Source: Candidatus Zhuqueibacterota bacterium (GTDB lineage Bacteria; Zhuqueibacterota; Zhuqueibacteria; Thermofontimicrobiales; Thermofontimicrobiaceae). From it: a stretch of 64,000 bases of DNA. The DNA lies in NCBI GenBank assembly GCA_049322915.1, contig JBMOPW010000014.1, positions 669,527 through 733,526 of the forward strand, in the 5' to 3' direction. This document shows positions 6,654-46,579 of this stretch, piece by piece. The first letter of the stretch is position 1; every line of letters starts with the position of its first letter. Under the pieces are notes generated by a model. That model was not told the origin of the DNA, did no database searches, and was given only the letters and a program-made list of their open reading frames with translations. Both the position numbers and the translations under genes were made by a program.

Positions 6654-6806
6654 ATAAGTTGGGAGGATCAATCGCGCGTTGCTGTGAAGGAACTTTGCTT
6701 TTCGTGACTACGTTCAACAGATGAATTTTCGACAAGTGACTGCTTTGTCTGGCGATTCTGGTGATAATGAATCGCCTTTTTGTTATAGAAATATTCATAA
6801 ACCTAT

Positions 6807-29496: not shown

Positions 29497-29557
29497 TGTA
29501 TGCTTTTTTTGAAAGATATAAGAATTCTTTTGCCGAACAACGACAAGGAGAAGTTTC

Positions 29558-31918
29558 ATGGATCAGCAACACGAACGACAAGCAAATATTTATGATTATA
29601 TACGAATGTTCTATAAAGGACGATGGATTATCCTCATTTCATTTTTGACCGTCTTTGGATTTGTAACCTACTATACGTTCACCACAGCTCCTACCTACCA
29701 GGCAACCGCCAAGGTGATGATCAAAGAAAATAAGAATCAGATATTCAACGCCTTTTCTGGTAACTATTTTGAAAAAGATAAAATCATCAATAATCAGGTC
29801 GAGATTTTAAAAAGCCGGACATTGGCCGAAAGAGTGGTTGTCAAATTGCAGAAATCTGAAAGAGCGAACCGGCTGAGAGTTTTGGGCTATATCCCTGAAA
29901 GTGAAAAAAGTCGTTTCAGCTTCAAATCAAAGATAAAGAAATTTGTCGCCGGGTTCTGGGGCTCTGAAAATGGCGACTCAACAGGGAGCGCCGACCATGA
30001 AATGCAAAATCCTGTGGAGCGATATGCTGAATCGTTGCGTACGTCGGTGAACGTCCAGCCGATTCGGAACACGGATATGATTGAAATCAGCGTCACAGGC
30101 TCATCGCCGGAGGAGGCAGCATACATTACTAATGCAGTCGCTTTGGTCTATCAGGAACAAAATCAAATGGAGAGCCAGGAAGAGGTCAAAAAAGTCAAGG
30201 ACTTCCTGTCCGAACAATTGAAAATTTTCCAGGCGCAGCTTCAGCAATCCGAGCAGGAATTGAAACAGTATAAAGAACAAGAAAAAATGGTAGCTCTGCC
30301 TCAGGAGATTGAGGAAATGGTCAGCAAACTTGCAGAGTTTGAAACGCTGTACCATGAGGCAGACCTTGAATTGAGTTCGAATCGGAAACGCCTCTCCTAT
30401 ATTGACGATCAACTCAATGAGAATAAACAAAATCTGAACATGGAGAACATTCTCACGGCTCCGTACTTGCAACAATTGCTGACACAGATGGCTGAGTTGG
30501 AGTCGAAAAAAGCGAAATATATTTCCAGCCTGATCAATGAGAATGTGTACGACCCGGACAATCAGACCGTAAAAAACTATGAAGAACAAAAAAAGGTATT
30601 AGCGGATAAGCTCAAGGATGGGATAACACAATTGGCAGCGGCAGAGACTGGCGATCCCATCACCCTTTCGGAAACCCTGTTCCAGCGGAAAATTGAAATC
30701 GAAGCGACGATTCAATCTTTACTGCCCAAAGTATCGGCGCTTAAAAAAATTGTTGACGAATACAGTCAGAGTCTCGAGACGGTTCCGGAGCGAAGCTTGA
30801 AATTGGCGCGATTGGAGCGCTCCGCACGACTTGATGAAAAAATTACGTTGATGATGAAAGAGAAATACGAAGAGTCGAGAATTTCAGAAGTCGGCCAATT
30901 GGGCAATGTTCGAATTATTGATCCGGCAAAACCGGTCCATGCGCCAATTAAACCCAAGAAAAAAATGAATCTCATCATGGGAGTGATATTGGGGCTCGGG
31001 CTTGGCGTTGGAATAACATTCATGCTGGAATACTTCGATAATTCTGTGCGTTCGGTCGAGGATGTTGAGAGAGCCGGGATTCCCATATTAGGGTCGATTC
31101 CAGTGATCAAACTCGAAGAAGCGGCCAGGAAAATTCAGCAAAGCCGGAAACTTGAATCTGGTAAATCTCCATTGAATCCTCATGAGGCGCGCACGATTGC
31201 CGGCCGGCTCATCACACATTTTGCGCCCAAGTCCCCGATCTCCGAGGCCTACCGCAGTTTACGTACAAGCATTCAATACGCCAAAGCGGACACGCCCATC
31301 AAAACGATCGTTGTCACGAGCCCCGGCCCGCAGGAAGGGAAATCCACGACGGTTGCTAATCTGGCAATCACCATCGCGCAGATGGGTACGCGCGTGCTGC
31401 TCGTGGATACGGATTTGCGCCGGCCAGTGCTGCATTCCATCTTCAATCTCAATCGCTCCAAAGGTATTTCCAATTATTTAATAGGGAAAATACCTATTGA
31501 TGAAGCGATTTTTAAGACTGACATCGATAATCTGTACTTGATGCCATGCGGAACATTGCCGCCCAATCCGTCTGAATTGCTGGGTTCCAAGGCGATGCAA
31601 AAATGTATTGCTGAACTCCGGGAGATGTTCGATATTGTCTTGTTCGATAGCCCGCCGGTTATGGCTGTGACCGATGCGGCGGTGCTCAGTTCCGGAGTGG
31701 ATGGATTGATTTTAGTGGTTAAATCCGGGCAGACCGATAGAAACGCCATTGCGCGGAGTTATGAAATCCTGAAGAACATACCGAACAACATTCTCGGCGC
31801 GTTATTGAACGTGGTCAATGTGGAAGGCGTCTACGGATCGTATTATTACTATTATTATCACTATTATTACTACGGAAAAGATGGCACCAAAAAGTCCCGC
31901 AGAATCAAACGGGCATAG
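29558..31918 (+). CDS. wzc: Polysaccharide co-polymerase / tyrosine autokinase (Wzc family)
   Basis: Two TMs flanking a coiled coil, EAYRSLRT, Walker A GPQEGKST, DTDLRRP, FDSPP, C-terminal Tyr cluster YGSYYYYYYHYYYYG. Confidence 0.93.
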   Translation: MDQQHERQANIYDYIRMFYKGRWIILISFLTVFGFVTYYTFTTAPTYQATAKVMIKENKNQIFNAFSGNYFEKDKIINNQVEILKSRTLAERVVVKLQKSERANRLRVLGYIPESEKSRFSFKSKIKKFVAGFWGSENGDSTGSADHEMQNPVERYAESLRTSVNVQPIRNTDMIEISVTGSSPEEAAYITNAVALVYQEQNQMESQEEVKKVKDFLSEQLKIFQAQLQQSEQELKQYKEQEKMVALPQEIEEMVSKLAEFETLYHEADLELSSNRKRLSYIDDQLNENKQNLNMENILTAPYLQQLLTQMAELESKKAKYISSLINENVYDPDNQTVKNYEEQKKVLADKLKDGITQLAAAETGDPITLSETLFQRKIEIEATIQSLLPKVSALKKIVDEYSQSLETVPERSLKLARLERSARLDEKITLMMKEKYEESRISEVGQLGNVRIIDPAKPVHAPIKPKKKMNLIMGVILGLGLGVGITFMLEYFDNSVRSVEDVERAGIPILGSIPVIKLEEAARKIQQSRKLESGKSPLNPHEARTIAGRLITHFAPKSPISEAYRSLRTSIQYAKADTPIKTIVVTSPGPQEGKSTTVANLAITIAQMGTRVLLVDTDLRRPVLHSIFNLNRSKGISNYLIGKIPIDEAIFKTDIDNLYLMPCGTLPPNPSELLGSKAMQKCIAELREMFDIVLFDSPPVMAVTDAAVLSSGVDGLILVVKSGQTDRNAIARSYEILKNIPNNILGALLNVVNVEGVYGSYYYYYYHYYYYGKDGTKKSRRIKRA

Positions 31919-32045
31919 CCAGAGGAAATAAATGAGTAGCAGTCAAAAATCTGTTGCGGTGAACGTCCAGGAAAAACATGGAACGCGGATGACGCTTTTT
32001 ACACGGATTAAAATTTTGGCGCCTGTATTATTATTGGACATACGC

Positions 32046-32073
32046 GTAGAGGACGGTCGCGACCGTCCACTAC
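32046..32073. repeat. GTAG-type REP palindrome
   Basis: GTAG-a-GGACGGTCGCGACCGTCC-a-CTAC. Confidence 0.7.
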
Positions 32074-32187
32074 AGATAAAAAAAGTATAGAATTTATTGC
32101 ACATGCCTTCACCTCGTCATTCATATTCATAGTGAAAATCAGAATTAATTGCCATTATTACAATACATTCTATAAAAAAAATATATA

Positions 32188-32382
32188 GAAGCCGTTGAAA
32201 CGGCTTCGGACATGTTTCATTCATGCAGTAAACACCTTGATGCATTGCCCAGTCTTCCATATTTTTTAAGGAGACAATACTGGGAATCATGGTGTTGATT
32301 CAAAGGGGAGTTGAACTAACACCACAATTTATTGTGGTGTGTCAACAGAGGTGGGGACAACCAATGAACTGCTTCAGCAGTT
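32188..32382. repeat. Multi-hairpin REP cluster
   Basis: GAAGCCGTTGAAACGGCTTC, ACACCACAATTTATTGTGGTGT and AACTGCTTCAGCAGTT hairpins. The same architecture occurs at 44326-44484 and partially at 43097-43159. Confidence 0.65.
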
Positions 32383-32717
32383 TCAATTTTCACGATGCTT
32401 ATACAATATAGTAACTTTTCGGAATCACATCCCTCTCTGTTCAATTCGTTAGCTCATTGCTCGTTTATTTTGTAGCCACGTAGCAAGGTTCGAATTGAGT
32501 CATCGTTAGAAATTCTTAATTGTGCGGATGTATCTGAAGGAGTCTGGAGCTGTGGAAACATGGCTGGTTATTACGGGAACAGTGGCTGTCCGAAAAAAAC
32601 ATCACGTTTTAAAGAAAAATGAGGAAAAGAAAATATTTAATCTCTGCAATATAATTGCCACCCTTATTTGCTGTCTGTTAATTTATCTTTAAAATAGTTA
32701 AGATGTTGCAATAAACA

Positions 32718-32746
32718 TTGACTTTTACAGAAAATATGGTTATTTT
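32718..32746 (+). promoter_or_regulatory. Sigma70-type promoter of orphan gene 32853
   Basis: TTGACT-17 bp-TATTTT. Confidence 0.5.
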
Positions 32747-32852
32747 CGGCCATTCATTTCGTTCGGGATCCAGTGCAAAGTAAAAAAAATCATGTGTTAG
32801 AGCCACAATAATTAATTCAGGTGCGGTTTAATTAGCAATAGGGATATGAAAG

Positions 32853-33203
32853 ATGAAAGAGACAAGTGAAAGTTTTCCGAGGAATACCTTGAGACAGGCT
32901 GAATTAGCATTAGAAGGCTGGAAAGAACTGTACGAACGGCTCAATGTACCCAACCTATCGCTCGATGATTTTGCCGAGAAAATATCATTCGCAACCGATA
33001 AGGTGGACCTTGCTGAAAGGTTGAAGGAAGAAAGAAGCAAGGCGGTCCAGGTCCGAAACGATAGTCTTAAGGAAGTGTGGGATTTGACCAAAAGAATTCG
33101 CAATGCTGCCAAAGCGACGTTTGGAGATAATTCAAACGAAATTGAAAAATTTGGGGGCAAATCGTCCCGTCAACGCAACAAGGGCGAGAGGGATTTTGAC
33201 TGA
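32853..33203 (+). CDS. Hypothetical alpha-helical protein (RIRNAAKATFGDNSNEIEKFGG motif)
   Basis: 116-aa ORF with its own promoter and terminator. Amphipathic helical pattern and basic tail. Confidence 0.75.
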   Translation: MKETSESFPRNTLRQAELALEGWKELYERLNVPNLSLDDFAEKISFATDKVDLAERLKEERSKAVQVRNDSLKEVWDLTKRIRNAAKATFGDNSNEIEKFGGKSSRQRNKGERDFD

Positions 33204-33329
33204 TCGCCGGTTATGTGTTCCATCAGATGTGGATTATTCATGAAATAGAATGTATTCCATGTGCTGCTCATTGCATCCCCTGAATAGCCAACCGAAGGAT
33301 TTTGAATTTTAAATATGCGACAGATCGGG

Positions 33330-33360
33330 AAAAAGCTCAAATTCAATATTTGAGCTTTTT
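33330..33360. terminator. Bidirectional intrinsic terminator
   Basis: AAAAAGCTCAAAT-tcaat-ATTTGAGCTTTTT. Confidence 0.75.
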
Positions 33361-33485
33361 ACTAATTGAACAACCACGGTTTTCATGTTCCGAAAATTGA
33401 GGGATCATTGTGCTGACAATTATTCAGGCATATCTACTTGTCTCGAAGTTACAAAAAGGGCTCTATTCTAAATTGTGTGGGTAAT

Positions 33486-33650
33486 TGTAAATTTCAAGTG
33501 AAAAGTGTACCATTGTATTAATTGAAAAGTATACCAGTGGATTAACAATGTGCCCAATACTCACTGTATTGGATACGGCCCCTGTCCGAAGGAAACGGGA
33601 TGGCAAATGTCGGAATGAAGCAGCGAACGGTTATTAATATCCTTTCATAA
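33486..33650 (+). mobile_element. Orphan IS21-family-like end / remnant
   Basis: 5'-TGT end with tandem TGAAAAGT(G/A)TACCA boxes at 33499 and 33523. No istA/istB in the window. Confidence 0.55.
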
Positions 33651-34127
33651 TTAAGAAAAATAAGTATCTAACTGAATGTAAAACAAAGATAAAAAAAAAT
33701 ATTAACTGTAATACGATGAAAATATGAGTTCTATCACATACTATTTATACCAGTATCATTAACTTTCAAACGAATAAAACATTGCGATATAATGTCGGAT
33801 GCCAGAGTGTAACGCTATTAAAATTAACGCATTAAAATTTATTAAGAATACGTCACAAGGATTGATTTTTAATTTAAAACTTATATATTGTAATCTGATG
33901 TTTGAGTAATAAAAGCATTTTGCGGTTGATGAAGACGTGCGTGAGTCTATCATTATTTGGCCTGAACAAGGCCAATGCCAAACGATCCTGTGCTCACACT
34001 TCAACTAACGAGCTCACCTGATTTTATTGACGTTTACAAACGACGTTGCTGATTAAAAAAAATGAATCATCCATTCAGGATGTCATGAAACGCCGGCGGA
34101 GTTTCGGTATGTTCTATCCGCTGATGG

Positions 34128-34235
34128 TTAACCTTACTACGTCACATAGATTTATTATCGTTATATGCTGTTTTTTGGATAGATGATAAATTCAGCATAT
34201 TGTGATAAATTTGCTAAATGACATTGTAGGGTTCA
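34128..34235 (+). mobile_element. ~108-bp MITE family B, copy 1
   Basis: TTAACCTTACTACGTCA...TGACATTGTAGGGTTCA. Reverse complement of 42770-42877 along its whole length, with scattered substitutions. Confidence 0.8.
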
Positions 34236-34842
34236 TTGAAATGATGACATGAAAGTCAACATTATTACTTTCCTAGCGCGCTAAATCGCAAGTGAAACGT
34301 CAGACGAGAGAAGTGAGATGTAAAACATTATTCGTTTGACATTTCACTTCTCACGTTTCACTATGTGTTAGAAGGGATTCCTGTGTTATATTAAAATATT
34401 TTGCACAAAAATGCAAAAGTTATGTTGTAATACTTTAGGTAGCTTGAAGTGGATTGGCTATGTGATGCCAGCGGTATATTCGACACTCGGCAGTTCCAAT
34501 GGAAAGCGTCTGGATATTATGACAAGAATCCATAGAGTAATCGGCTCAGAGTTCAGAATATGAGCACCAGCCATTGTTATAATAATGAGTCTATTGTTTC
34601 ATCTTACATGGGCTCAATTCCTAAAGCAGACGAGGCTTCATGTTAAAAGGCTTGTAATAAAGTCCGTCAATGGCTGAAGAAATTCTGGCAGTAACAATAT
34701 GTTTAGAGAAACACTGCGATGCTTAAAGCCATCGCACCACGAATTGTGAGCTAAATTTCTCAGATTCAACCTGGGAATTTAGGTGGTGTTTAAAATTCGA
34801 AGCTGCTTCTGTGGAATTCGCTGCAATTCCAGAGGAGTCGCA

Positions 34843-34890
34843 ATAGCCCCGTGTCAGTTTTGGTTCGTGTGACTGACGGGGCGGAGCTAT
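34843..34890 (+). promoter_or_regulatory. Leader hairpin with ops-like GGCGGAGC just upstream of upxY
   Basis: GCCCCG-tGTCAGT pairs with ACTGAC-GGGGC, ATAGC pairs with GCTAT. 18 bp before the upxY ATG. Function is inferred. Confidence 0.45.
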
Positions 34891-34908
34891 GCCCGGGAAC
34901 AAAATAGA

Positions 34909-35445
34909 ATGAGTCATGAATATTCCAAATCGATCTTTGGCGAGTTAAACGTTGAGCCGAATTGGTATGCCGTTACGACAAAACCGAGGCATGAAAAAAA
35001 AGTATTCCAATTACTCACAATAAAAGGAATAGAAAGCTATCTGCCATTACAAAAACTATCGCGAAAATGGAGCGACCGCTATAAAGTAATCGAACAGCCC
35101 TTATTCAGTTGCTATGTTTTTGTACGAATCGCCTTGAAAGACAGGCTTCCGGTTTTACAGACAGATGGGGTGGTGAAGCTGGTGACATTTAACAACATTC
35201 CGGCGACCATTCCTGATTCGCAAATTCAGGCTGTGAGACTCGTACTGGAAAAATGTCACACGATCGAGCACATTGATTTTCTCACCCCTGGCCAGAGAAT
35301 TGAGGTCGTTCAAGGGCCGCTCAAGGGGATCTCAGGATTGTGCGTCGAAATTAAAAACAGCCACCGACTTGTGGTCCGATTGGAAAGCATACAGCAAGCG
35401 ATCTCCGTGGATATTGATCTGAGGGACATTAAAATTCTGGAATGA
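34909..35445 (+). CDS. upxY: UpxY-family (NusG paralogue) transcription antiterminator
   Basis: WYAVTTKPRHEKKV, YLPL...RKWSDRYKVIEQPLFSCYVFV, KOW motif GQRIEVVQGPLKG. Confidence 0.92.
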   Translation: MSHEYSKSIFGELNVEPNWYAVTTKPRHEKKVFQLLTIKGIESYLPLQKLSRKWSDRYKVIEQPLFSCYVFVRIALKDRLPVLQTDGVVKLVTFNNIPATIPDSQIQAVRLVLEKCHTIEHIDFLTPGQRIEVVQGPLKGISGLCVEIKNSHRLVVRLESIQQAISVDIDLRDIKILE

Positions 35446-35451
35446 GAAATG

Positions 35452-35598
35452 CCAGATAGCAGAAATCAGATACCAGATAACTGATACCGGATGCCAGATA
35501 ACAGATGCCAGATAACAGATAACAGATACCAGATACCAGATAACAGATACCGGATGCCAGATAACGGATACCGGATGCCAGATAACGGATACCGGATG
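35452..35598 (+). repeat. 21 x 7-bp tandem repeat (CCAGATA/ACAGATA/CCGGATG)
   Basis: Units counted by eye. A higher-order 21-mer CCAGATAAC(A/G)GATACCGGATG occurs at the 3' end. Confidence 0.9.
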
Positions 35599-36176
35599 TC
35601 TCATGTGCCTTTGATTTGAGGAAGATGAATATCACGAATCTTAAATAAGGAGTTTGAGATTTATTATAAACTCACCTAACCTGGACAAGCCAAAACCAAA
35701 AAAGAAATGGAACGCTGATTACGCGGATGATCCTCCTAAAAGCTTGGCGGACGTTCCGCGCTGATCTTCACGGATTCTTAATCAGTATTAATCTGTGTTA
35801 TCAGTGTCCCATAAAATTTTCTGCCAAAAAATGCAAGAATATTATTTGTAAGTTATTAAATCCTCTCTTGAAAATGGAGGACTTAAAAATGAGTCTGCGG
35901 TAAGAAGCCTGCACAGGTATTGATGGGATGGTTCGACTATTTTTCCACGCCATGAATGACGTGGCTATTCATTTAAATATATTAGCCCTTTTGAATAGCC
36001 CCGACTTTTAAGTCGGGGATCAGAGAAATCCATTAAATTTTGGGCTTTAGCCCCATAGGGAGTAGTTCTAAAATCGAGACAAAAGAGGCAGTCAGAAATT
36101 TAAAGCAATACCACATATTTTATTTTTTCATTAATAAGACAAAATTGGTGTTGAGATTTTTTATAAACTCACCTAA

Positions 36177-36337
36177 CCTGAATTATTCATGAACTTGCTC
36201 AGAATTTGAGTCAACATTTAGATTTTCAATTAGCTAAAAGCTGAGCTATTTTAAAACTCAGTTTTTGTACGTTTATACTTAAAAGAGCACCATTCAGGTT
36301 AGCCAGCCTCCTTTCAAAATACTATGAATAATGCAGG
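36177..36337 (+). mobile_element. 161-bp MITE family A, copy 2
   Basis: TIRs CCTGAATTATTCAT / ATGAATAATGCAGG, flanked by CTAA/CTGA. Confidence 0.85.
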
Positions 36338-36526
36338 CTGAATCCTCTCTTGAAAAGAGAGGACTAAAAACGAAATCTGGTGACCAATCTATTGGTAATT
36401 TTATTTTCCACCAAGAACGAAAATCAATTTTCAACATGGAAATTCGAACTACCAAAATCGAACTAGGAGCATCGAATCACCAATAACCAAATCACATACA
36501 CCAACGACCAATTCACCAAATATTAC

Positions 36527-36555
36527 TTGCTTTTTAATACGGTTGTAGTTATGTT
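36527..36555 (+). promoter_or_regulatory. Possible sigma70 promoter of the first AbiEii cassette
   Basis: TTGCTT-17 bp-TATGTT. Confidence 0.4.
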
Positions 36556-36609
36556 CCGTGAAACGATTCTAATAATAACGATCCTGAAACATAATAATAA
36601 TGTGTGCTT

Positions 36610-37305
36610 ATGCTTAAAACTCCGAAAATTACAGCGCCGAAATCATTGAGTTCTCTTGCTACTGCATGCCTGAAAGCCTTGCAAGATTCAGGGTTTGGGA
36701 AGTATATTACTTTAGGGAGAGCAGTTGGATTAGCACATTATTATGATTACAGAACGACAAAGGATGTTGATGCATGGTGGACAGTTGACGCCACAGAAAA
36801 GATTAAGAGTCAAGTTATTAATTTACTAAAAACAACGCTGGAAGATTTTGGTGAAATTTCAGTCAGAAGGTTTGGCGACGTGATAAGCGTAGATGTGAAA
36901 GAAAATAAACAGGTAATATTTAATTTTCAGATTGCATCGCGTAGCGCCTTGTTGAAATCACCTGTGGAAAGTCCGTGGCATCCAATTCAACTGGATTCGA
37001 TTGATGATTTGATTGCCAGCAAGATGACGGCTCTCATCGAGAGAGGCGCGCCAAGAGATTTCCTTGATATTTATGAATCATGCAAGCAAAAACTGGTTAC
37101 AGTTCAAGATTGTTGGGAGCTCTGGCAAAAACGAGAGCGATTGAGGGGGATTGAAAATATGGATGTAAAAATCGGCTGCGAAGCGTTGTTGTTGCATTTG
37201 AAACGAATTGAGAAAATCAGACCACTCGAGAGTATCGAAAATTTGGAGCAACGAGAAAACGCTGAAACAGTGAGAAAGTGGTTTAAGAATGAATTCTGCA
37301 AATGA
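36610..37305 (+). CDS. AbiEii/AbiGii-family nucleotidyltransferase (variant G-R motif)
   Basis: LGRAVGLAHYYDYRTTKDVD and DLIASKMTALIERGAPRDFLDIY. Confidence 0.8.
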   Translation: MLKTPKITAPKSLSSLATACLKALQDSGFGKYITLGRAVGLAHYYDYRTTKDVDAWWTVDATEKIKSQVINLLKTTLEDFGEISVRRFGDVISVDVKENKQVIFNFQIASRSALLKSPVESPWHPIQLDSIDDLIASKMTALIERGAPRDFLDIYESCKQKLVTVQDCWELWQKRERLRGIENMDVKIGCEALLLHLKRIEKIRPLESIENLEQRENAETVRKWFKNEFCK

Positions 37306-37612
37306 TAATTCGATCTGGATTGACGGAAGTCTTTTTCCTGATTGCGAAGCGCCAGGAGCATTGACCACGTTGAATGAACGCATTGATTTTATTTCCCGAT
37401 TATGCAGCGCGTGGGATTTCGGTGTATTGCCGCTTCCGGAAACATTGGCAGAAGTCCGGAAAAGCGAATGGATGGAAGCGGTTGAAGAAACCAATCTGTT
37501 AACTTCATGCGCATATCATTTGCTCAGGGATTTTCATGGTTTAGAACCACTGCCATATTTAGGCCCTAAACCTAATGACATTTTGAATGATCCGTGTTTA
37601 GAGTTTATTTAA
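37289..37612 (+). CDS. Hypothetical protein, overlapping partner of the AbiEii gene
   Basis: 107-aa acidic ORF overlapping the upstream stop by 17 bp. Confidence 0.7.
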   Translation: MNSANDNSIWIDGSLFPDCEAPGALTTLNERIDFISRLCSAWDFGVLPLPETLAEVRKSEWMEAVEETNLLTSCAYHLLRDFHGLEPLPYLGPKPNDILNDPCLEFI

Positions 37613-38002
37613 TTGGGCCGATTCTGATAAGCTACGACTAGTAAGTCGTATAAGAAAAATCATAATAGGTTAATCTAAAATAAGCAGTCAGCCTGCAGCT
37701 ATCAGCACTCAGCAAAAGAAATATAAGTACATTGATTGCATGTATGAAATCACCCAAAAGGCGAAAAAGTTTATCAAGCTAAGCTGATGACTGAAAGCTG
37801 ACAGTTCTAAATCCGCCATTTTTTAGGCGGGCTAATCGCTCAATTCAGGTGTAAATATTCCCGACTTTAAAATCGAGGGAAAAATTACTGTTCGCCATTC
37901 ACCAATAACAAATTCATCAATTTAACACTCACCTATACATAAAAATGGTGAACATGTTTACTACCAATATTTCGCCATTATGTGGATTTGAAAATCGTCA
38001 AT

Positions 38003-38096
38003 CACCAACAAATCCCGTAGGGATGGGATATGGGTAGAAAAAAGTAATCCCCCTGAAAGATAAAACCCCGTCAGGGGTGACATATTCTTTAAAACA
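38003..38096 (+). repeat. ~94-bp REP-like direct repeat, copy 1
   Basis: AATCCCGTAGGGATGGGATATGGGTAGAAAAA...AAAACCCCGTCAGGGGTGACATATT. Copy 2 is at 39924-40014. Confidence 0.85.
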
Positions 38097-38308
38097 TAAC
38101 GCGCTGAAGCGCACGTGAAACGTAAGACGTGAGACGACTTTTCAGCCCATGATAAAAATGCGAACATCCCGAAACCCGATTCCCGAATCACCAACTCATA
38201 CGGAACTTTTTCAGTAAAATACAATATAAAAGATACAACGAAAAATTATGTAATAACCCGATTAAATGATAAGTCTGGTTTTAAATATATCGCTTAAATA
38301 TTAAAACA

Positions 38309-39568
38309 ATGCATATTCAACGACAAATTTTGCTTAAAATTTTGTCTCATTTGTCTGCCAAAGAAATGACGTTGATCACCGGCGCGCGCCAGGTGGGTAA
38401 AACAACGGTGATGAAGGAAGTCAAAGATATTTTAGATAAACAGGGCAATCAAACACTGTTTTTCAATCTCGACTTTGAAACCGATTTCAGCTATGTCGAA
38501 TCCCAGGGTAAATTCTTGCAAAAAGTTAAATTGGAATTCGGTGACAAGCCGGGATTTATTTTCATCGACGAAATCCAGCGAAAAGAAAATAGCGGCTTGT
38601 TTCTAAAAGGATTATTCGACAGGAATCTGCCTTACAGATTTATCGTGTCCGGGTCCGGCAGCATGGAATTAAAAGAAAAAATTCATGAATCCCTCACCGG
38701 CAGAAAACGAACGTTCGAATTATCGACCATTTCTTTCCGGGAATTTGTCAATTTCAGAACTGACTATCGCTACGAAAACAATCTCAATGATTTTTTTGAT
38801 GTGGAAAAAGAGCGAACAGAACTCCTTCTGAACGAATATTTGGCGTGCGGCGGCTACCCGCGTCTTGTTGTTGAATCCACAAAACAGGAAAAGAGCCAAT
38901 TAATCAATGAAATTTACACCAGCTACTTAAAACGAGACGTGGCCTATCTGCTGAATATTGATCGTCCTGAATTATTTACCCGGCTGATTCAATTACTCGC
39001 CCATGCCACAGGATCAATCCTGAATTACAGCACGTTAGCGTCCGATGTTGGCGTTTCCGTTCCAACATTAAAAAAATACTTCTGGTATGCAGAGAACACA
39101 TTCATTATAAAAATCATCACTCCATATTTTAAAAATAAACGCAAGGAAATTAAAAAATCGCCCGTCGTGTATTTTAACGACCTTGGCTTGAGAAATTTTG
39201 CCCTGAATCAATTTGGCAAAGAACATCTAATCGAGGGCGCCGGGCTGCTCTTCCAGAATTTTGTGTTTAATATCATTCAGGAATTAAATCAATACGCGTT
39301 TGCAGAAATCAATTTTTGGCGAACAACGGATCAGGCAGAGGTCGATTTTATCATTCATTCAGGCGATGAAATTGTTCCGGTCGAAACAAAATGTTCCCGC
39401 CTGAAAAATGACCGAGTAAGCCGATCGTTCAGGAATTTCATTGAGGCCTATGAACCCAAAAATGCATATATTGTCAATTTAGACTATACATCAGAAATGA
39501 AAATTAACAACACCACTGTAAAATTTTTACCCTACTATAAATTATACCAGGAAAAAATACTAGAGTGA
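38309..39568 (+). CDS. AAA+ ATPase (AAA_14 + DUF4143-type, COG1373-like)
   Basis: GARQVGKT, FIDEIQ, SGS, ESLTGR, GGYP, YFNDLGLRN, FWRT...EVDF...VETK. Confidence 0.9.
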   Translation: MHIQRQILLKILSHLSAKEMTLITGARQVGKTTVMKEVKDILDKQGNQTLFFNLDFETDFSYVESQGKFLQKVKLEFGDKPGFIFIDEIQRKENSGLFLKGLFDRNLPYRFIVSGSGSMELKEKIHESLTGRKRTFELSTISFREFVNFRTDYRYENNLNDFFDVEKERTELLLNEYLACGGYPRLVVESTKQEKSQLINEIYTSYLKRDVAYLLNIDRPELFTRLIQLLAHATGSILNYSTLASDVGVSVPTLKKYFWYAENTFIIKIITPYFKNKRKEIKKSPVVYFNDLGLRNFALNQFGKEHLIEGAGLLFQNFVFNIIQELNQYAFAEINFWRTTDQAEVDFIIHSGDEIVPVETKCSRLKNDRVSRSFRNFIEAYEPKNAYIVNLDYTSEMKINNTTVKFLPYYKLYQEKILE

Positions 39569-39771
39569 AAGAGTCGATTTAGTCATAACCTCACCTAACC
39601 TGGATGAACCAGAAATTCCAAAACACAAAAATCAAATCTTCATAAGGCAGAGCCTTTAAATAAATTGATCCGCCGAAGGAGGATAACAAATAAAATCCAA
39701 ACTTTAAAAAGACAAATTCAAAACAATATTATTTTAATATCTTCACTGGATCTATTTCAGCCTGTGGTAAA

Positions 39772-39930
39772 AATTCGAAAATCCCGAATCCCGAACATCG
39801 AATTACTAATCACCAACATCAAATATCCAATATCTAAAATCTAATATCCAACATCGAATATCGAAAATGAAAAATCGAATCACCATAACCAATCACCAGT
39901 TTACCAATACCCAGTCACCAATTCACCACC
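39772..39930 (+). repeat. Degenerate 7-nt-periodic A/C-rich array
   Basis: ATCCCGA ATCCCGA ACATCGA ATTACTA ATCACCA ACATCAA ATATCCA ATATCTA... Confidence 0.8.
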
Positions 39931-40014
39931 AAATCCCGTAGGGATGGGATATGGGTAGAAAAATTAGCCTCTGGATGAGAAAACCCCGTCAGGGGTGACA
40001 TATTATTTAAAACA
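39924..40014 (+). repeat. ~94-bp REP-like direct repeat, copy 2
   Basis: Matches 38003-38096 except for a variable middle segment. Confidence 0.85.
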
Positions 40015-40150
40015 CAAATTCCAAAATTACAGGTCACCAAATATCAAAAATTGCAGGATGGAACAGGGTTTGAAATTTATTATAAACTCACCCTAAAAAC
40101 GAAATACAAAAAACAATCTAACGGTAATTTTTCATTTCAGTAGTTTTTCT

Positions 40151-40394
40151 CATCCAACATCCAATAACAAGTATCGAACATCCAGTATCTAATATCCAAA
40201 ATCGAAAATCCCGAAACCCGAACACCAAATCACGAATCACAAATATCCAATTTCTAATATCTAATAACGAAACACTAATAACCAATCACCAATCAACAAT
40301 TCACAAATTCACCAATCACCAACATCCAACATCCAATATCGAATATCCAAAATCGAAAATCCCGAATCACCAATATCGAGTAACGAACATTAAA
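40151..40394 (+). repeat. Degenerate 7-nt-periodic A/C-rich array (>30 units)
   Basis: ACATCCA ATAACAA GTATCGA ACATCCA GTATCTA ATATCCA AAATCGA ... ATCACCA ATATCGA GTAACGA. Confidence 0.85.
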
Positions 40395-40497
40395 AATAAA
40401 TCTTGATTGTTAAAATATATTTGATAAATTATTATTGAATTTACAAGATGTAATGATATGTTTTCCCGGTTCATTTAAATATTGTGGTGTAAAATTA

Positions 40498-40788
40498 ATG
40501 TCTGAAAAAAATAGCGTAAATAATGACCAATTAAAGGAGTTCATCAATCGGCACAGTTTGCTTTGGTGGTGGGTGCCTGATGAGAAGAAAGAAAATTTAA
40601 GTTTGAAATCGGTAGTCGAAGCAATTCTGAATTATGGAAGTCTGTCAGACATTAAAGAATTATTCGAACTTGTTGGTTTAAAGACAGTTGCTGACGTTTT
40701 TTATGAGGCAACCAATAACCGCCAGCGTTCCAATTATTCTCCTGAAATTGAAAACTTTTTTAAACTGTACTTTGAACGTCATGCATGA
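40498..40788 (+). CDS. Small putative antitoxin (DUF6922-like)
   Basis: LWWW...VVEAILNYGSLSDIKELFELVG pattern. ATGCATGA overlap with the downstream AbiEii gene. A TTGATT..TAAATT promoter-like site lies at 40403-40430. Confidence 0.65.
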   Translation: MSEKNSVNNDQLKEFINRHSLLWWWVPDEKKENLSLKSVVEAILNYGSLSDIKELFELVGLKTVADVFYEATNNRQRSNYSPEIENFFKLYFERHA

Positions 40789-41398
40789 AGAAATTTTGAC
40801 AAACAGGCAAGTAGAATTGATTCCATTAATTCGTCTCTTCAATCGGTCTTTTTACCTGGTTGGCGGCACCGCAATCGCACTTTATCTTGGACACAGACAC
40901 TCAATCGATTTCGATTTATTTAATCCCAAAACATTGAATAGAAAGAATATTTATAATAAGATTATCGAAAACAATTTTCATATCGATAATACGCTGGTAG
41001 CGACGAATGAAGAATATACCTTAATTACCAACAGGGTAAAGATAACGTTTTATAATTTTCCCTTTGACATTCCGCATAAAATTAAATTTAAAAATATTAT
41101 AAGTATGCCGACATTACTGGACCTGGCTGCCATGAAAGCATACGCGCTGGGAAGAAGAGCGAAATGGAAAGACTATGTGGATCTTTATTTTATTCTACAG
41201 TATCATTACTCCCTGAATGAACTCTGCAAAAGAGCAGCAGAATTATTCGGTGATCTTTTTAGCGAAAAGTTGTTTCGGGCGCAATTATCATTTTTTGCTG
41301 ATATAGATTATTCAGAACCGGTGAGCTATGTTTCAGATTCAATTGATGAAAACGAAATCAAAGAGTTTTTAAAAGAAATAACAACCCGACCGTTGTAA
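40781..41398 (+). CDS. AbiEii/AbiGii-family nucleotidyltransferase
   Basis: FYLVGGTAIALYLGHRHSIDFDLF and LAAMKAYALGRRAKWKDYVDLY. Start at ATG 40781. Confidence 0.9.
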   Translation: MHEEILTNRQVELIPLIRLFNRSFYLVGGTAIALYLGHRHSIDFDLFNPKTLNRKNIYNKIIENNFHIDNTLVATNEEYTLITNRVKITFYNFPFDIPHKIKFKNIISMPTLLDLAAMKAYALGRRAKWKDYVDLYFILQYHYSLNELCKRAAELFGDLFSEKLFRAQLSFFADIDYSEPVSYVSDSIDENEIKEFLKEITTRPL

Positions 41399-41588
41399 AT
41401 TTCTCCAAACGTTCTGGAAATCTTTCCTGAATGCTGAAGCCAAATATACTGAAAATACCAAAGATCAACAGCCAGAAATCAAACAAGCCACAAAATCCAA
41501 CAATGAATCACCTTTAATCCTTGTTTTCCTAACGATAAAAAAATTGTAGGATTAAATTGGTGTTGGGATTTTTTATAAACTCACCTAA

Positions 41589-41749
41589 TCTGAATTATTC
41601 ATGAACTTGCTCAGAATTTGAGTCAACATTCAGATTTTCAATTAGCTAAAAGCTGAGCTATTTTAAAACTCAGTTTTTGTACGTTTATTCTAAAAAGAGC
41701 ACCATTCAGGTTAGCCAGCCTCCTTTAAAAATACTATGAATAATGCAGG
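41589..41749 (+). mobile_element. 161-bp MITE family A, copy 3
   Basis: Near-identical to 36177-36337, including the flanks. Confidence 0.85.
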
Positions 41750-42020
41750 CTGAATCCTCTCTTGAAAAGAGAGGACTTAAAAATGGGTCTGCGCTAAAAT
41801 GCCGGCAAAGGCATTGATGGGATGGTTCGGATATTTTTCCACGCCATGAATGACGTGGCAATTCAAATGAGCTATTCTCCCCCGACTTAAAAGTCGGGGC
41901 TATTCAAAGGGAAAAGAAATCAAACCCAATGTATCAACGCCTTTTAAGGCTTTTTGAGTCGACCCATAATAAAATAGAGGCATTTAACAACCCAAAAATC
42001 CAGTCTTCATTCCAGTTCAA

Positions 42021-42319
42021 ACAATCTTACATTCGAGAAAAATCGCCTCTCCTCTGAGAAATACAATTTTACATCCGAGAAATACAATCTTACAACCAGG
42101 AAATACAATCTTACATCCGAGAAATGCAATCTTACATTTGGGAAATACAATCTTACATCTGAGAAATGCAATCTTACATCCAGGAAATACGATTTTACAT
42201 CCGAGAAATGCAATCTTACATCCGAGAAATACAATTTTACATCTGAGAAATGCAATCTTACATCCAGGAAATGCAATTTTACATCTGAGAAATGCAATCT
42301 TACATCCGGGAAATGCAAT
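42021..42319. repeat. ~14 x 21-bp tandem repeat (RCAATYTTACATCCGAGAAAT)
   Basis: Units counted by eye. The minus-strand frame 42007-42318 is open as (H/Y)FSDV(R/K)L heptads. Confidence 0.92.
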
Positions 42320-42446
42320 GGTGCAACAAAGAAATGGCGACTTGTGAATGGTGAATTTTGAATGGTGAATGCTTATGTGGGAAGCGTGAATTTTAAAAGG
42401 GGCGGCCAGATGGAGACATCGCTTTTATGTGATTGGTGGACAGTAT

Positions 42447-42620
42447 CTAAGTATACCATTTCATAAATTTTTGGAGGGTTCATCCGTCATGCCCGTCCCG
42501 AAGCATCGGGATTAGCGGGCATTCACTGGATTCCCGCCAAAAACACGCGGGAATGACGATCAATGAAAACTCATTCTCACCATTGAAACCCTAAATAGAT
42601 TTGTGAAACGCTGTACTAAG
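42447..42620. mobile_element. MITE family C with CTAAG target duplication, carrying an internal REP
   Basis: CTAAG-TATACCATTTCATAAAT...ATTTGTGAAACGCTGTA-CTAAG. Confidence 0.65.
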
Positions 42621-42769
42621 TCGAAATCCCAGAAAATACAAAAAACAATTAACCCTTTGTTGAGCGAATAGCATTCAGCTTTCAGCACTTATTAAAAAAA
42701 AATAGAAACAGTTACAGGGTTTACCGCATTTGCTGACAGGGTAATTCCATCGCTGATCTTCACGGATTC

Positions 42770-42877
42770 TTAACCCTACAACGTCATTTAGTAAATTTAT
42801 CAAAATATGTTGAGTTTTTCATCTATCAAAAATACAATATACAACGATAAAAAATCTATGTGACGTAGTAGGGTTAA
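42770..42877 (-). mobile_element. ~108-bp MITE family B, copy 2 (inverted relative to copy 1)
   Basis: TTAA-CCCTACAACGTCA...TGACGTAGTAGGG-TTAA. Confidence 0.85.
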
Positions 42878-43290
42878 TTCATAAAGGCACCGAAGGACGC
42901 AGGTAAACCTGAAAAGATAAAAATTCAATAATCAACTAACACGCCAATCACAAAACCAAATTCCCAAAAATTTAACCCGGACAGGGATGTTCGGTTCTTC
43001 ATTCTAGAAAAAAGTCTGTAAATTTAAGATTTGTATTTGGAATTTGTTGAGTACCAGCCGCAGACAGGTGCGTTCTTTGGCGCATCTACCATTATCACCA
43101 TGCTGAAGCGTGGTGTTCAAAAATAATCCAGCCAGCTAACCAGCCGCTTCAGCGGCTTCTGGAATATATGAGTTGATTCGTTATCATTTTTTCTCAATAA
43201 AATTGTGAATAAAATTTTCGGTTTGGGGGAGTTAGACTATAAAACCACTATAACTCTCGTATCATTCAGGTTAAAGAAAAGGAGCCTGCC

Positions 43291-43935
43291 ATGACAAAAC
43301 GTGAAATGAACAAACTCATGATGTACAAATCCGTGAACGGATTGCTGAAAGAAAAGACGAGTATCACCACAACGGTTCCGGCGTTTGCGACTGTGGCGCA
43401 GCAGTTTCAGGCAGCGATCGATGCGATTGAAACCAAACATAAGGAACACAAGAGCGTGGCCAAAGGGCGGGCGCAGCAGAAGGGGGCGAATGAGGATGAA
43501 TTGGTGGACAGCCTGGTGACTGTCTGTTCCATTTTATACGTTTTAGCGGTGCAAACGGGCGATAAAGCGCTGCAGGAAGCGGTGCGGGTGAATGAATCCA
43601 TGCTGAAAAGGCTGCGGGATGTTGATCTGCTGAACCGCGCGAACACGATTTACAGTTACGCCAATAACAAAGCGGCGGAACTGGCGAATTATGGCCTGGA
43701 TGCGGCTTCTCTGACATCTCTGGGTGAAAAAATAAAAACATTTGGCGGCGCTCTGGAAAATACCGAAGTTGGGGCCGCAGAAAAGACAGCCGCCCGCCAT
43801 ACATTGAGCGAAGGGATAGACCATGCGGATCATGTGTTATATGATATGCTGGATCCACTGATGGAAATTTTCCGATCATCCCAGGTGGAGTTTTACAATC
43901 AATATATGAGCGCGCGAGTGATTAAGGATTTGTGA
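43291..43935 (+). CDS. Hypothetical all-alpha protein (N-term NKLMMYKSV, C-term FYNQYMSARVIKDL)
   Basis: 214-aa ORF with AAGGAG RBS. Visibly more GC-rich than its flanks. Confidence 0.8.
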   Translation: MTKREMNKLMMYKSVNGLLKEKTSITTTVPAFATVAQQFQAAIDAIETKHKEHKSVAKGRAQQKGANEDELVDSLVTVCSILYVLAVQTGDKALQEAVRVNESMLKRLRDVDLLNRANTIYSYANNKAAELANYGLDAASLTSLGEKIKTFGGALENTEVGAAEKTAARHTLSEGIDHADHVLYDMLDPLMEIFRSSQVEFYNQYMSARVIKDL

Positions 43936-44306
43936 GACCCTCTCATGGGGAATGCCATGCCGTCGCCGGGTGAAAAACGTGAGAAGTTGGAAGTCTGATA
44001 CCTGATAACAGATAGCAGATATCTGATGACGGATACTTAATGACAGAGTGGTTTTCGGATGCGCTACGCTGCCATGTCTGCGAATGTTTTTGATGCGCCC
44101 TGGCGTGCAGGCATCTCTTCACAGTCGCATGGGGGATCCCCGCATTCTCGGGAATGACATCATGTGTAAAAAATCCTAAAAACAATCTGTTCCGAGAGTA
44201 GTAAATATGTAGGTTACGTCGGGTATTCGATGCTTGCTATTTGAGTATTGGCGCCTGCATTTCTTCTTTTTTTATAATAAGTTGCATCGTACATCCACTA
44301 TTTTAT

Positions 44307-44514
44307 GTCTGTCCGAAAAATACAGGAAACCGTTAAAATGGTTTTAAAAAAACGATTTGGATTGCAAGGACACCGCGTTAAAACGTGGTGCTCGTTCAAT
44401 ATCTTATTTTAAATCAGCACCTCCAATTTATTGGGGTGTGGATGCAAATTGGATACTATTTCAATAACCATTTCAATGGTTTTCAATCATATAACTAACC
44501 ATTTTCGGACAGAC
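44307..44514. mobile_element. MITE family D enclosing a four-hairpin REP cluster
   Basis: Perfect 13-bp TIR GTCTGTCCGAAAA...TTTTCGGACAGAC, ending 73 bp before gmd. Confidence 0.75.
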
Positions 44515-44587
44515 TCAATTTAGAAGCTCATATCGAACAAAGAGAATTGAGCACCTAATTATAATTTTTTAGCAACTAAAGGATAAA

Positions 44588-45625
44588 TTGAAGACAGCAT
44601 TAATAACAGGAATCACCGGACAGGATGGCTCGTATTTAACTGAGTTGTTGATCCAGAAAGGCTATCAAGTCCATGGAATAATCCGACGCAGCAGTTCAAT
44701 TAATACCGGGCGGATTGATCATTTATACCGAGATCCTCATGTAAATAACCGAAAGATGATTTTACATTATGGGGATCTCATCGATTCAAGTAATTTAAGC
44801 CGATTGATTGAAAAAATACACCCGGATGAAATTTATAATTTGGGCGCGCAAAGCCATGTTCAGGTATCGTTTCAGGTCCCTGAATATACCGCAGAAGTGG
44901 ATGGCCTGGGAACGCTACGTTTGTTAGATGCAATTCGTGAAGTTGGCATCAAAACCAAATTCTATCAAGCCTCGACAAGTGAATTATTTGGTAAGGTTCT
45001 AGAAATTCCACAAACAGAAAACACCCCTTTTTATCCTCGTAGCCCTTACGGAGTTGCAAAGCTTTACGCCTACTGGATAGTTAAAAACTATCGGGAGGCT
45101 TATAATTTATATGCCTGTAATGGAATTTTATTCAATCATGAATCCCCGCGCCGTGGCGAAACATTTGTCACACGAAAGATTACGAGGGCTGTAGCACGGA
45201 TTAAAATGAATTTACAGGATAAACTGTATCTTGGTAATTTAAATGCAAAAAGAGACTGGGGGTATGCGCCTGACTATGTGGAAGGCATGTGGAAAATGCT
45301 GCAGCAAGACCAGCCGGATGATTTTATACTGGCAACGGGTGAAACACATTCAGTGCGGGAGTTTGCTGAATTGGCGTTTCAGGAAATTGGTATCGACCTG
45401 GAATGGAGTGGAAAGAATGAGGACGAGGCTGGAATTGACTCAAAAAATGGCAATGTGATGGTTAAGGTGGATAAAAATTACTACAGACCGACTGAAGTCG
45501 ATTTACTTATCGGAAATCCTGAAAAAGCAAGAGAAAAATTGGGATGGGAAATTAAAGTAAATTTTCATAATTTAGTTAAATTGATGGTTCAGGCTGATCT
45601 CGATGAATTACAAAACCGACAATAA
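44588..45625 (+). CDS. gmd: GDP-mannose 4,6-dehydratase
   Basis: [32 protein letters not shown] and [17 protein letters not shown] motifs. Confidence 0.97.
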
Positions 45626-45643
45626 ATTCTGCGGACAGAAACG

Positions 45644-46579
45644 ATGAATTATTTTAAAGATAAAAAGATAACAGTCACCGGAGGAAATGGTTTTCTCGGT
45701 AAATATGTGGTCAAAAAGCTACATGACCGTGGCGCTGAAAATGTCAACATAGCGGATATAGATCGTTATGATTTGACAAAAACAGAAGATGTTGTAAGAA
45801 TGTATGAAGAGCAGCGCCCGGATATCGTAATTCATTTAGCCGCCGTGGTCGGAGGGATAGGCGCAAACAGAGAAAATCCGGGCAAGTTTTTTTATGACAA
45901 TGCTATCATGGGAATTCAACTCATTGAATATGCCCGCAGATTTAATATTCAAAAATTTGTATGCATTGGGACTATTTGCGCCTACCCAAAATTTACACCG
46001 GTCCCTTTTAAAGAAGAAGATTTGTGGAACGGGTACCCTGAAGAAACAAACGCGCCGTATGGCCTGGCCAAAAAAATGCTCCTGGTTCAGCTCCAGGCGT
46101 ATCGCCAGCAGTATGGATTTAATGGCATTTATTTATTGCCGGTAAATTTGTATGGCCCGGGAGATAATTTTGATCCAAGATCTTCCCATGTTATTCCTGC
46201 CCTGATTAAAAAATGTGTAGATGCAGTTAGAGAAGGTAAAGACGAAATTGTTGTGTGGGGCACTGGGGAGGTATCGCGGGAATTCATTTATGTGGAAGAC
46301 GCAGCCGAAGGAATTGTGTTGGCAACTGAAAAATATGATAAACCCGAGCCTGTGAATATTGGTGCTGGATTTGAGATAATAATAAAAGATATAGTAAATT
46401 TAATAGCAAAATTGACTAATTTTAAGGGCAGGATTATTTGGGATAAGTCTAAACCTGATGGACAACCTCGGAGGATGTTGGATACTAGCAAAGCCTTCTA
46501 CGAATTCAATTTTAAAACAAAAATAAATATATCAACGGGATTGAAAGAAACGAATAAGTGGTATCTCGAGAATTTCTGA
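45644..46579 (+). CDS. fcl: GDP-L-fucose synthase family epimerase/reductase
   Basis: [28 protein letters not shown]...SHVIPALI and KPDGQPRR motifs. Confidence 0.92.

Follow-up and report, generated by a model that had tools for sequence, protein, structure and literature searches.

Accretion of accessory genes and repeats in the first part of a UpxY-type polysaccharide locus from a KSB1-type bacterium

Islands of defence and toxin-antitoxin (TA) genes, as well as the variable ends of polysaccharide loci, are sinks for accessory genes. For the UpxY proteins of Bacteroides, the accessible part of one source (PMC11685472) describes recruitment at opsX sites in the leader, which form hairpins with GCG/AGC stems in the non-template strand, and the same mode of recruitment is described there for RfaH. 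Intergenic direct repeats of the heptamer TAACTGA are reported in Beggiatoaceae, Cyanobacteria and some Bacteroidetes, according to the accessible portion of another source (PMC4679880). The locus considered here is the interval between wzc and gmd in a stretch of 64,000 nt ("the window") of contig JBMOPW010000014.1 from a Candidatus Zhuqueibacterota bacterium, whose homologues are labelled "candidate division KSB1 bacterium" and place it in a KSB1-type lineage. This interval is best compatible with an insertion-tolerant accretion zone that heads an antiterminated polysaccharide operon, a reading to which we assign a probability of about 0.65. The genome under study is labelled G000, its relatives are G001, G008, G009, G011, G013, G018 and G019, and L061 and L062 are metagenome contigs.

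The window lies on a 1.09-Mb contig of a 6.25-Mb genome (45 contigs, ~49% GC), and all of its 47 long open reading frames (ORFs) are on the + strand. A series of envelope housekeeping genes (waaA, uppS, bamA, lpxD, lpxC-fabZ, lpxA, dxr, rseP, ftsK and lolA) and wzc, the orthologues of which in relatives show 61-86% identity, precede the interval; gmd, fcl and a long series of sugar-modifying and glycosyltransferase genes follow it. Between the end of wzc at 31918 and gmd (44588-45625), there are eight ORFs, all intact and co-oriented (Table 1). Under a mask of ORFs of at least 100 aa, 59.7% of this DNA contains no ORFs, compared with 11.6% genome-wide, and the non-coding fraction amounts to 62.9% once the gene starts are refined. 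Only 5 of the 5807 sliding windows of the same size are more ORF-poor than the interval, all of them in one CRISPR-type region next to a Cas2 gene, and an rRNA operon comes next in this ranking. The coding fraction of the DNA 3' of upxY is 63-94% in six relatives and 41.7% in G000, where the distance from upxY to gmd is 9.1 kb. The preliminary description of this DNA, in which well over half of the interval was non-coding and all its genes were co-oriented, is accurate on both counts, as it is in coordinates and content, and accessory genes and repeats have indeed accumulated, to an exceptional degree, where a UpxY-type polysaccharide locus begins. It located the island inside the leader; strictly, the bulk of the island is 3' of upxY. 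The three supposed orphans, orf116, the 107-aa ORF and orf214, belong to families of many members (Table 1), and orf116, one of its cassettes, and upxY are core genes by synteny in relatives. As a separate observation, the 12 kb that are poorest in ORFs and richest in repeats genome-wide, at C34:~415000-427000 (L076), abut the Cas2 gene and are probably a very long CRISPR array.

Relatives at the levels of family and order keep the arrangement wzc-orf116-upxY, as do metagenome contigs. The product of upxY scores above the cut-off of the curated UpxY-family model, and the gene is single-copy in the genome (one tblastn match). In five relative loci, the next ORF begins 90-141 nt 3' of upxY, and polysaccharide genes are found there. 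No ORF that might encode UpxZ is present directly 3' of upxY, a check confined to this position and made without a UpxZ model. The ops-like motif that precedes upxY, which we take to be akin to the ops sequence of E. coli (RfaH), has a core, GGCGGAGC, that is conserved 17-40 nt upstream of upxY in 9 of the 12 aligned loci amid otherwise diverged DNA; the window holds one exact match to the motif, and its extended context occurs once in the genome. Further upstream, the two hexamers at 33862-33889 represent a candidate promoter of the upxY operon, and a promoter at this position would imply a leader of ~1 kb with two repeat insertions. An invertible promoter was also considered and rejected: the 17-nt inverted pair at 33761/34328 is of chance quality and is not kept in G001.

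Several cassettes of the interval had been credited with promoter-like sites of their own. A scan detects 50 such sites, compared with 41.5 +/- 7.0 in shuffled sequences, which is not above chance, and none of them is on the + strand in the 650 nt 5' of gmd. The Bacteroidetes-type promoter pattern, in the form that we assume for its consensus, has 4 matches, with 2.66 expected, and 0 on the + strand. Terminator-like sites number 23, compared with 11.6 +/- 3.1 in shuffles, and 16 of the 23 are on the - strand of this DNA, the + strand of which is A-rich. One repeat family described below, F8, can form a weak hairpin with a U-run behind it on the + strand, and two F8 copies stand in the path of transcription. 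Because there is one conserved ops-like site, the genes are co-oriented, the corresponding operon of G018 is compact (the gap between the ATPase gene and gmd is ~60 nt) and no promoter-like site is found close to gmd, read-through from upxY to gmd by UpxY-modified RNA polymerase is plausible, by analogy with Bacteroides.

The cargo of the zone consists of two pairs with AbiEii-like nucleotidyltransferases, an ATPase gene and orf214. Both AbiEii proteins contain the AbiEii domain together with a nucleotidyltransferase motif (GR..DVD in AbiEii1 and GG..DFD in AbiEii2), and their PADLOC AbiEii matches are weak (2.9e-7 and 3.3e-7). The two proteins are only remotely alike, so that a recent duplication is not indicated. 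The winged helix-turn-helix antitoxin AbiEi is found 5' of neither gene: no ORF upstream of AbiEii1 has a family match, and the upstream partner of AbiEii2 matches only DUF6922, below the cut-off. The 107-aa partner, orf107, is encoded directly 3' of an AbiEii1-like gene in 4 other loci, and decayed versions of this arrangement are seen in 2-3 more; judged from this recurrence, AbiEii1-orf107 is a conserved two-gene module. A Foldseek search with the orf107 model (pLDDT 88.6) finds nothing at E<=0.001, and VIA-align gives generic helical matches, with a Z score of 5.5 at best. The AAA_14/DUF4143 ATPase matches PDLC04789, the profile for PDC-S01, over residues 1-395 of 419, that is, at full length. 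In the orf214 family, Pfam matches are absent from 19 of the 20 members that were scanned; a CarboxypepD_reg domain is found at the C terminus of a few members. The small protein orf116 shows no similarity to orf214, contains no Pfam domain, and is found KSB1-wide, always between wzc and upxY. Its structural model (pLDDT 85.8) consists of a long helix (residues 37-90, 54 residues) plus short helices. The protein may have a regulatory role or act together with the machinery for export or antitermination. A search of PHROGs gives no match for 6 of the 7 scanned proteins and two weak matches only for the ATPase (best E 5e-4), and Rfam gives no match at gathering score.

Comparison with relatives reveals how this cargo was assembled. 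G018, which belongs to another family (its wzc is 61% identical), has the compact order upxY-ATPase-gmd-fcl. The ATPase is 92% identical to its G018 counterpart at the amino acid level and 91% at the DNA level, and gmd-fcl is 88% identical in DNA, compared with ~66% for wzc DNA; this difference points to a recent horizontal exchange of the segment at the head of the locus between families. Homology between G000 and G018 stops at 39553 and restarts at 44578, and 5.0 kb of DNA between the ATPase gene and gmd in G000 is absent from G018. The aligned blocks are 38176-39553 and 44578-46488 in the window and 6685-8062 and 8131-10040 in L020 (G018:C28). Relatives of the ATPase are found in the same context in 1 of 22 loci. 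In G013 and G011, which belong to the family of G000, orf107 and the DUF6922-like-AbiEii2 pair are contiguous, which indicates that the two pairs are an old tandem. The DUF6922-like/AbiEii2 pair is 74-78% identical in G013, where it is co-oriented within the middle of a polysaccharide locus, and is also present in G011; G013 no longer has AbiEii1, of which G011 retains a 45-aa remnant, and orf107 is kept in both. The ATPase stands between two AbiEii pairs in G000 only, and a broken remnant of orf214 lies 5' of upxY in G018.

Both AbiEii (PF08843) genes of the genome and one of its two PF13635 (DUF4143) ATPase genes are in the interval. In G009, the upxY-headed locus contains two MNT-HepT pairs, with 3 of the 7 HepT matches of that genome; other upxY-headed loci encode DUF5674, HepT and AbiEii1-orf107 (L061) and a DUF2204-type nucleotidyltransferase (L062). 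Co-oriented TA-type modules are present in 5 of the 8 loci with at least 4 kb of DNA 3' of upxY (G000 counted; the downstream ORFs scanned were 2 of 8 in G008 and 1 of 14 in G019), and G018 has the ATPase. The wzc-gmd interval is a hotspot. The second HepT of G009 (L016, G009:C14, 11172-11453; G009:C14:116216-116565) is interrupted by an in-frame TAG; this break, like the decay of AbiEii1 in G013 and G011, follows the usual course of decay, with the toxin going first. In a second metagenome (run X2, from another habitat type), low-depth contigs are 96-98% identical to wzc, upxY, AbiEii1 and orf107 (29504-37643), so that the island, or at least a part of it, is also present in a close strain elsewhere.

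The remainder of the zone is rich in repeats, and their reuse in the spacers, which had been noted before, is confirmed by copy numbers far above chance. The box string ATAAACTCACC has 4 of its 6 genome copies in the interval (0.012 expected), the hairpin string TCCTCTCTT 5 of 25, and the string GTAGGGATG, labelled REP (repetitive extragenic palindrome), 2 of 27; in addition, 14 of the 16 tandem-repeat rows that Tandem Repeats Finder (TRF) reports for the 64-kb window are inside the interval. A blastn search of 31-45 kb against the genome yields 598 matches outside the interval, and 2,339 nt of the interval have at least 3 copies elsewhere in the genome. The aligned copies, with 47-104 matches, are short, multi-copy sequences with terminal inverted repeats and without a transposase, i.e., miniature inverted-repeat transposable elements (MITEs), with target duplications (TTAA, CTAA) judged by eye only. 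Among these, F8 (171 nt, with CTAACCTGAATT... ends) has 104 blastn matches, F7 has 55, F10 is 174 nt long, and F2, F6, F7, F11 and F12 are further families. Non-coding bases in 14-mers that are present at least 5 times account for 12.8% genome-wide and 16.4% in the interval; the density of MITEs per non-coding base is therefore ordinary, and it is the amount of non-coding DNA that is extraordinary. A repeat density that sets the interval apart from other intergenic DNA is thus found for the 7-nt arrays, which are locus-enriched, and not for the MITE-type repeats, which are near the genome norm.

The box and the hairpin are the immediate left and right borders, respectively, of the F6 and F8 insertions. 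The box-hairpin unit exists in three diverged local copies (35654-36057, 36127-36402 and 41539-41978) plus two partial copies, and a partial box copy at 40046-40131 contains no MITE and can be considered "unoccupied". The REP string is part of a unit of ~100 nt that has two copies only in the genome, 38002-38099 and 39923-40017; its core strings (29 nt and 19 nt) occur nowhere in the genome beyond these two sites, and the same-genus genome G001 contains two copies of the unit just 3' of upxY. Two further observations concern small elements. At 33480-33582, an element of ~100 nt with a 24-nt tandem repeat has copies at C36:219507, C12:42463 and C29:61704 that are 99-100% identical; it has no Rfam match, and it either was active as a small element very recently or is a small gene that has been conserved. 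At C14:1008765-1009080 of G000, three F4 copies are arranged head to tail, with shared TTAA ends.

The arrays with a 7-nt period are what ordinary accretion leaves unexplained. Among the 34 non-coding arrays of period 7, 14, 21 or 28 in the genome, 6 are in the interval, compared with 0.30 expected (Poisson 7e-7), and array bases make up 9.2% of the non-coding DNA of the interval and 0.25% of that elsewhere, a 36-fold enrichment. The CCAGATA-type array 3' of upxY is also present in G001 and G018, and the other 10 of the 13 loci lack it. The AAYATCN type is confined to the interval within the G000 genome, shows an overall C:G ratio of ~3-5:1 (41:10 at 39771-39922 and 69:14 at 40150-40390), and is located ~70-110 nt 5' of each of three cassettes. 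The RNA of the latter two arrays is predicted to be nearly structure-free, with a minimum free energy of -0.041 and -0.017 kcal/mol/nt, respectively, compared with -0.22 +/- 0.06 for controls, 0 of 300 of which are less structured; both possess the features that we take to characterize a Rho utilization (rut) site, namely an unstructured stretch of RNA, rich in C and poor in G, that is no shorter than 80 nt. In G018, arrays of 7 nt with other sequences precede the ATPase gene and gmd; in G013 such arrays flank the AbiEii2 pair, in G011 they separate the two modules, and in G009 they precede the MNT-HepT pairs. None is found around the AbiEii1-orf107 pairs of another family. The proposal that shared repeats mark the cassette junctions accordingly holds for the 7-nt arrays in G000, G013, G011, G009 and G018, with sequences that differ, and fails for the other modules. 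As an aside, 7 of the 34 arrays of the genome, that of upxY included, begin no more than 10 nt from a stop codon (e.g., C14:748703, C2:124743, C26:140847, C26:213925, C16:1514 and C20:203627), and these stop-adjacent arrays look like a genome-wide class.

The arrays might be working intercistronic RNA or DNA elements, e.g., Rho-loading sites that make downstream expression dependent on UpxY, structure-free ribosome landing pads or protein-binding iterons, with the cargo deliberately co-regulated with the surface glycan. Their enrichment over other non-coding DNA, the uniqueness, C-richness and lack of predicted structure of the AAYATCN type, its position before three cassettes, the recurrence of arrays beside cassettes in G018, G013, G011 and G009, and the presence of a rho gene in the genome all argue for such a design. 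However, array sequences vary between genomes, some are G-rich on the coding strand (in G013), the array that follows upxY is not G-poor and is missing from most loci, and slippage-prone repeats can expand neutrally in tolerated spacers, so that we consider this explanation unlikely. It seems quite doubtful, in particular, that the 7-nt arrays, especially AAYATCN, have a function as junction elements in the UpxY-antiterminated operons that KSB1-type bacteria possess; in that case, they would mark the sites where cassettes are spliced in, with array microhomology favouring cassette gain and loss, they would serve as Rho-loading sites that impose dependence on UpxY or as landing pads for translation independent of Shine-Dalgarno sequences, and the antiterminator would turn the head of the glycan operon into a regulated expression platform for TA and defence cargo.

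Under the interpretation given in the preliminary description, the interval is an integrase-free, integron-like array in which the box, hairpin, REP and MITE modules are points of cassette recombination. Like integron arrays, it contains small, promoter-poor, co-oriented genes with structured repeats between them and one likely promoter upstream; the reused modules bracket every cassette, the ATPase gene is flanked by the two REP units and a three-cassette block by direct repeats (36142-36370/41554-41782, 97% identical), and flanking repeats of this kind could mediate RecA-dependent deletion. However, scans of the 8 ORFs and 78 further open frames of the interval, and of 46 window ORFs against NCBIfam (14 of them familyless), detect no integrase, recombinase or transposase domain, which bears out the reported absence of these enzymes and leaves the array without an IntI. 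Furthermore, attC-like core pairs, with the cores taken to be RYYYAAC...GTTRRRY, number 2, compared with 1.82 +/- 2.06 in 200 shuffles, which, by this crude count without a covariance model, is the chance level. Unlike the repeats of integrons, those of the interval are genome-wide MITEs, local duplications (the box and REP units are restricted to one locus) and 7-nt arrays, and their boundaries are not kept in relatives: the same cassettes are present in G018, G013, G011 and L061 without these flanking modules. Together with the core status of orf116 and upxY, these findings largely refute the integron-like reading, which we regard as highly improbable. That the interval is an artefact, with the order across the MITEs mis-assembled, or a decayed and silent scar of a larger mobile element is suggested by the public contigs, none of which spans it, and by its GC content, which at 38.2% falls between the 48.6% of the window's core part and the 32.1% of the polysaccharide genes. 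Against this stand the intact ORFs and the 78 further open frames, 0 of which score above a Pfam cut-off as gene remnants, as well as synteny that backs the joins (wzc-orf116-upxY in many relatives, AbiEii1-orf107 in 4 loci, orf107 with the second TA pair in G013 and G011, and ATPase-gmd in G018) and the near-identical pieces in the second metagenome; an artefact or a remnant is therefore very unlikely. Among the contigs of two DNA runs, no alternative bridging of a cassette boundary is found. A joint of 42877 to 44343 is a paralogous locus on C34, and two opposite-strand joints, the short sides of which (48 and 32 nt) are inside multi-copy repeats, are not interpreted, nor is the thin cover of gmd-fcl.

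The locus thus appears best described as an accretion zone that tolerates insertions. Its core layout would comprise wzc, orf116, a promoter and leader with the ops-like site, upxY and the biosynthetic genes. Between upxY and gmd, it would have gained an old tandem of two AbiEii-type TA-like pairs, kept vertically, a PDC-S01-type ATPase that would have been inserted between these pairs, the ATPase-gmd-fcl block having been exchanged horizontally, and one gene of a large family, orf214. The padding would result from MITEs transposed from genome-wide families, local duplications and the expansion of 7-nt arrays. Gain and loss would proceed by transposition, homologous recombination with foreign polysaccharide-locus DNA, slippage and duplication, with no dedicated site-specific system. 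By analogy with opsX and UpxY of Bacteroides, as described in the accessible part of PMC11685472, the zone would be tolerated because hairpins and terminator-like MITEs do not stop an RNA polymerase that has acquired UpxY at the ops-like site, and the cargo, which is co-oriented and promoter-less, would be expressed together with the rest of the operon. Several points weigh against this account. The gmd gene or the cassettes may have promoters of another type. Neutral accretion leaves unexplained both the 36-fold enrichment of the 7-nt arrays over non-coding DNA and their recurrence at cassette junctions of other genomes. In the same-genus genome G001, the cassettes have no match at the DNA or protein level, with a contig that ends 0.7 kb past upxY, and the short public contigs break at every repeat, so that the long-range order rests on assembly and synteny. 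If read-through does occur, a processive antiterminator makes an operon tolerate selfish DNA inserted on a massive scale, and the expression of a surface glycan carries along TA and defence genes that have no promoter. For an uncultured phylum, the locus offers a conserved ops-like motif of a UpxY outside Bacteroides, a conserved uncharacterised pair of a nucleotidyltransferase and a 107-aa protein, three large annotation-free families and a locus-enriched class of heptamer arrays; the recurrence of TA modules across the operons of relatives and the structure-free arrays at cassette junctions merit follow-up.

Table 1. Features of the wzc-gmd interval and its flanks (positions in the window; ".", no strand assigned)
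Feature	Position	Strand	Evidence or remarks
wzc (tyrosine autokinase/chain-length determinant), conserved left flank	29558..31918	+	Pfam GNVR, Wzz, AAA_31; NCBIfam Wzc models
MITE F1 copy, left terminal repeat missing	32008..32136	.	47 blastn matches; F1 ~150 nt
orf116, small protein	32853..33203	+	70-83% identical, syntenic in relatives; 152 homologues
Candidate upxY-operon promoter TTGATT-N16-TATATT	33862..33889	+	Both hexamers kept in same-genus G001, spacer otherwise diverged
MITE F4, 108 nt, TTAACCCTAC... terminal inverted repeats	34126..34233	.	51 blastn matches; inverted copy of 42770-42877
ops-like motif GGCGGAGCTATG, 17 nt 5' of upxY start	34880..34891	+	GGCGGAGC core in 9/12 aligned loci
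upxY (NusG paralogue), operon head	34909..35445	+	NF033644 143 bits (cut-off 100), E-value 8e-42; Pfam NusG NGN domain
CCAGATA-type 7/21-nt array, from 4 nt past upxY stop	35449..35611	+	TRF 20.9 copies
Two local box-MITE-hairpin unit copies	35654..36402	.	Inserts F6 35675-35808, F8 36173-36343; F7 35889-36057
AAYATCN-type array 5' of AbiEii1	36425..36520	+	27 C, 9 G
AbiEii-like nucleotidyltransferase (AbiEii1)	36610..37305	+	Pfam AbiEii PF08843 30.9 bits (cut-off 22.5)
107-aa partner (orf107), overlaps AbiEii1	37289..37612	+	455 homologues
Locus-specific REP unit, copy 1	38002..38099	+	Direct repeat of 39923-40017, 88% identity; pair brackets ATPase
AAA_14/DUF4143 ATPase, PADLOC candidate system PDC-S01	38309..39568	+	Pfam; PADLOC E-value 3.3e-83
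AAYATCN arrays around REP copy 2 (39923-40017) and unoccupied box (40046-40131)	39771-39922, 40150-40390	+	
DUF6922-like small protein	40498..40788	+	DUF6922 18.5 bits, under cut-off 27
Second AbiEii-like nucleotidyltransferase (AbiEii2), overlaps DUF6922-like ORF	40781..41398	+	Pfam 49.6 bits (cut-off 22.5)
Third box-F8-hairpin copy and F7-related sequence	41539..41978	.	97% identical to 36142-36370
21/42-nt satellite-like tandem array	41982..42340	.	TRF 12.6 copies; related arrays on contigs C17, C39
MITE cluster	42447..43230	.	F10 42447-42620, F11 42664-42751, F4 42770-42877, F12 43096-43230
orf214, large uncharacterised family	43291..43935	+	2,540 cluster representatives (50% identity clusters) at E<=0.001
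gmd and fcl, first biosynthetic genes	44588..46579	+	TIGR01472 595.7 bits; G018 88% DNA identity from 44578

As in the capsular operons of Bacteroides, to the extent that these are covered by the accessible part of PMC11685472, a long polysaccharide operon with co-oriented genes starts with the gene for a NusG paralogue of the UpxY family, and a short conserved motif of the GCGG..AGC type is located just 5' of the upxY start codon. Unlike in the UpxY/UpxZ system outlined in that source, there is one upxY in the genome, an invertible promoter is not evident, accessory genes and repeats separate upxY by 9 kb from the first biosynthetic gene, and the lineage is KSB1-type. With defence and TA islands, the locus shares AbiEii- and HEPN/MNT-type modules and a PADLOC candidate ATPase in low-GC, horizontally exchanged DNA; in contrast to such islands, the cargo is located within an operon behind a processive antiterminator and not next to integrases or tRNA genes. 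In a limited literature search, we found no paper on TA or defence cargo inside an antiterminated glycan operon. The MITEs resemble what we take to be the hallmarks of the Correia, ERIC (enterobacterial repetitive intergenic consensus) and BIME (bacterial interspersed mosaic element) types of intergenic elements, i.e., short non-autonomous elements with terminal inverted repeats and stable hairpins that reside between co-transcribed genes, some with terminator-like stems; here, however, at least 10 families, all undescribed, are nested in 12.7 kb. The heptamer arrays presumably have a parallel in the short tandemly repeated repetitive (STRR) sequences of cyanobacteria, which we take to be intergenic tandem 7-nt units, often just 5' of start codons. 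The same organization is reported for the TAACTGA repeats in the accessible portion of PMC4679880; compared with these, the arrays of the wzc-gmd interval have different units, CCAGATA and AAYATCN, are concentrated at one locus, show a 21-nt super-period and are positioned at cassette junctions.

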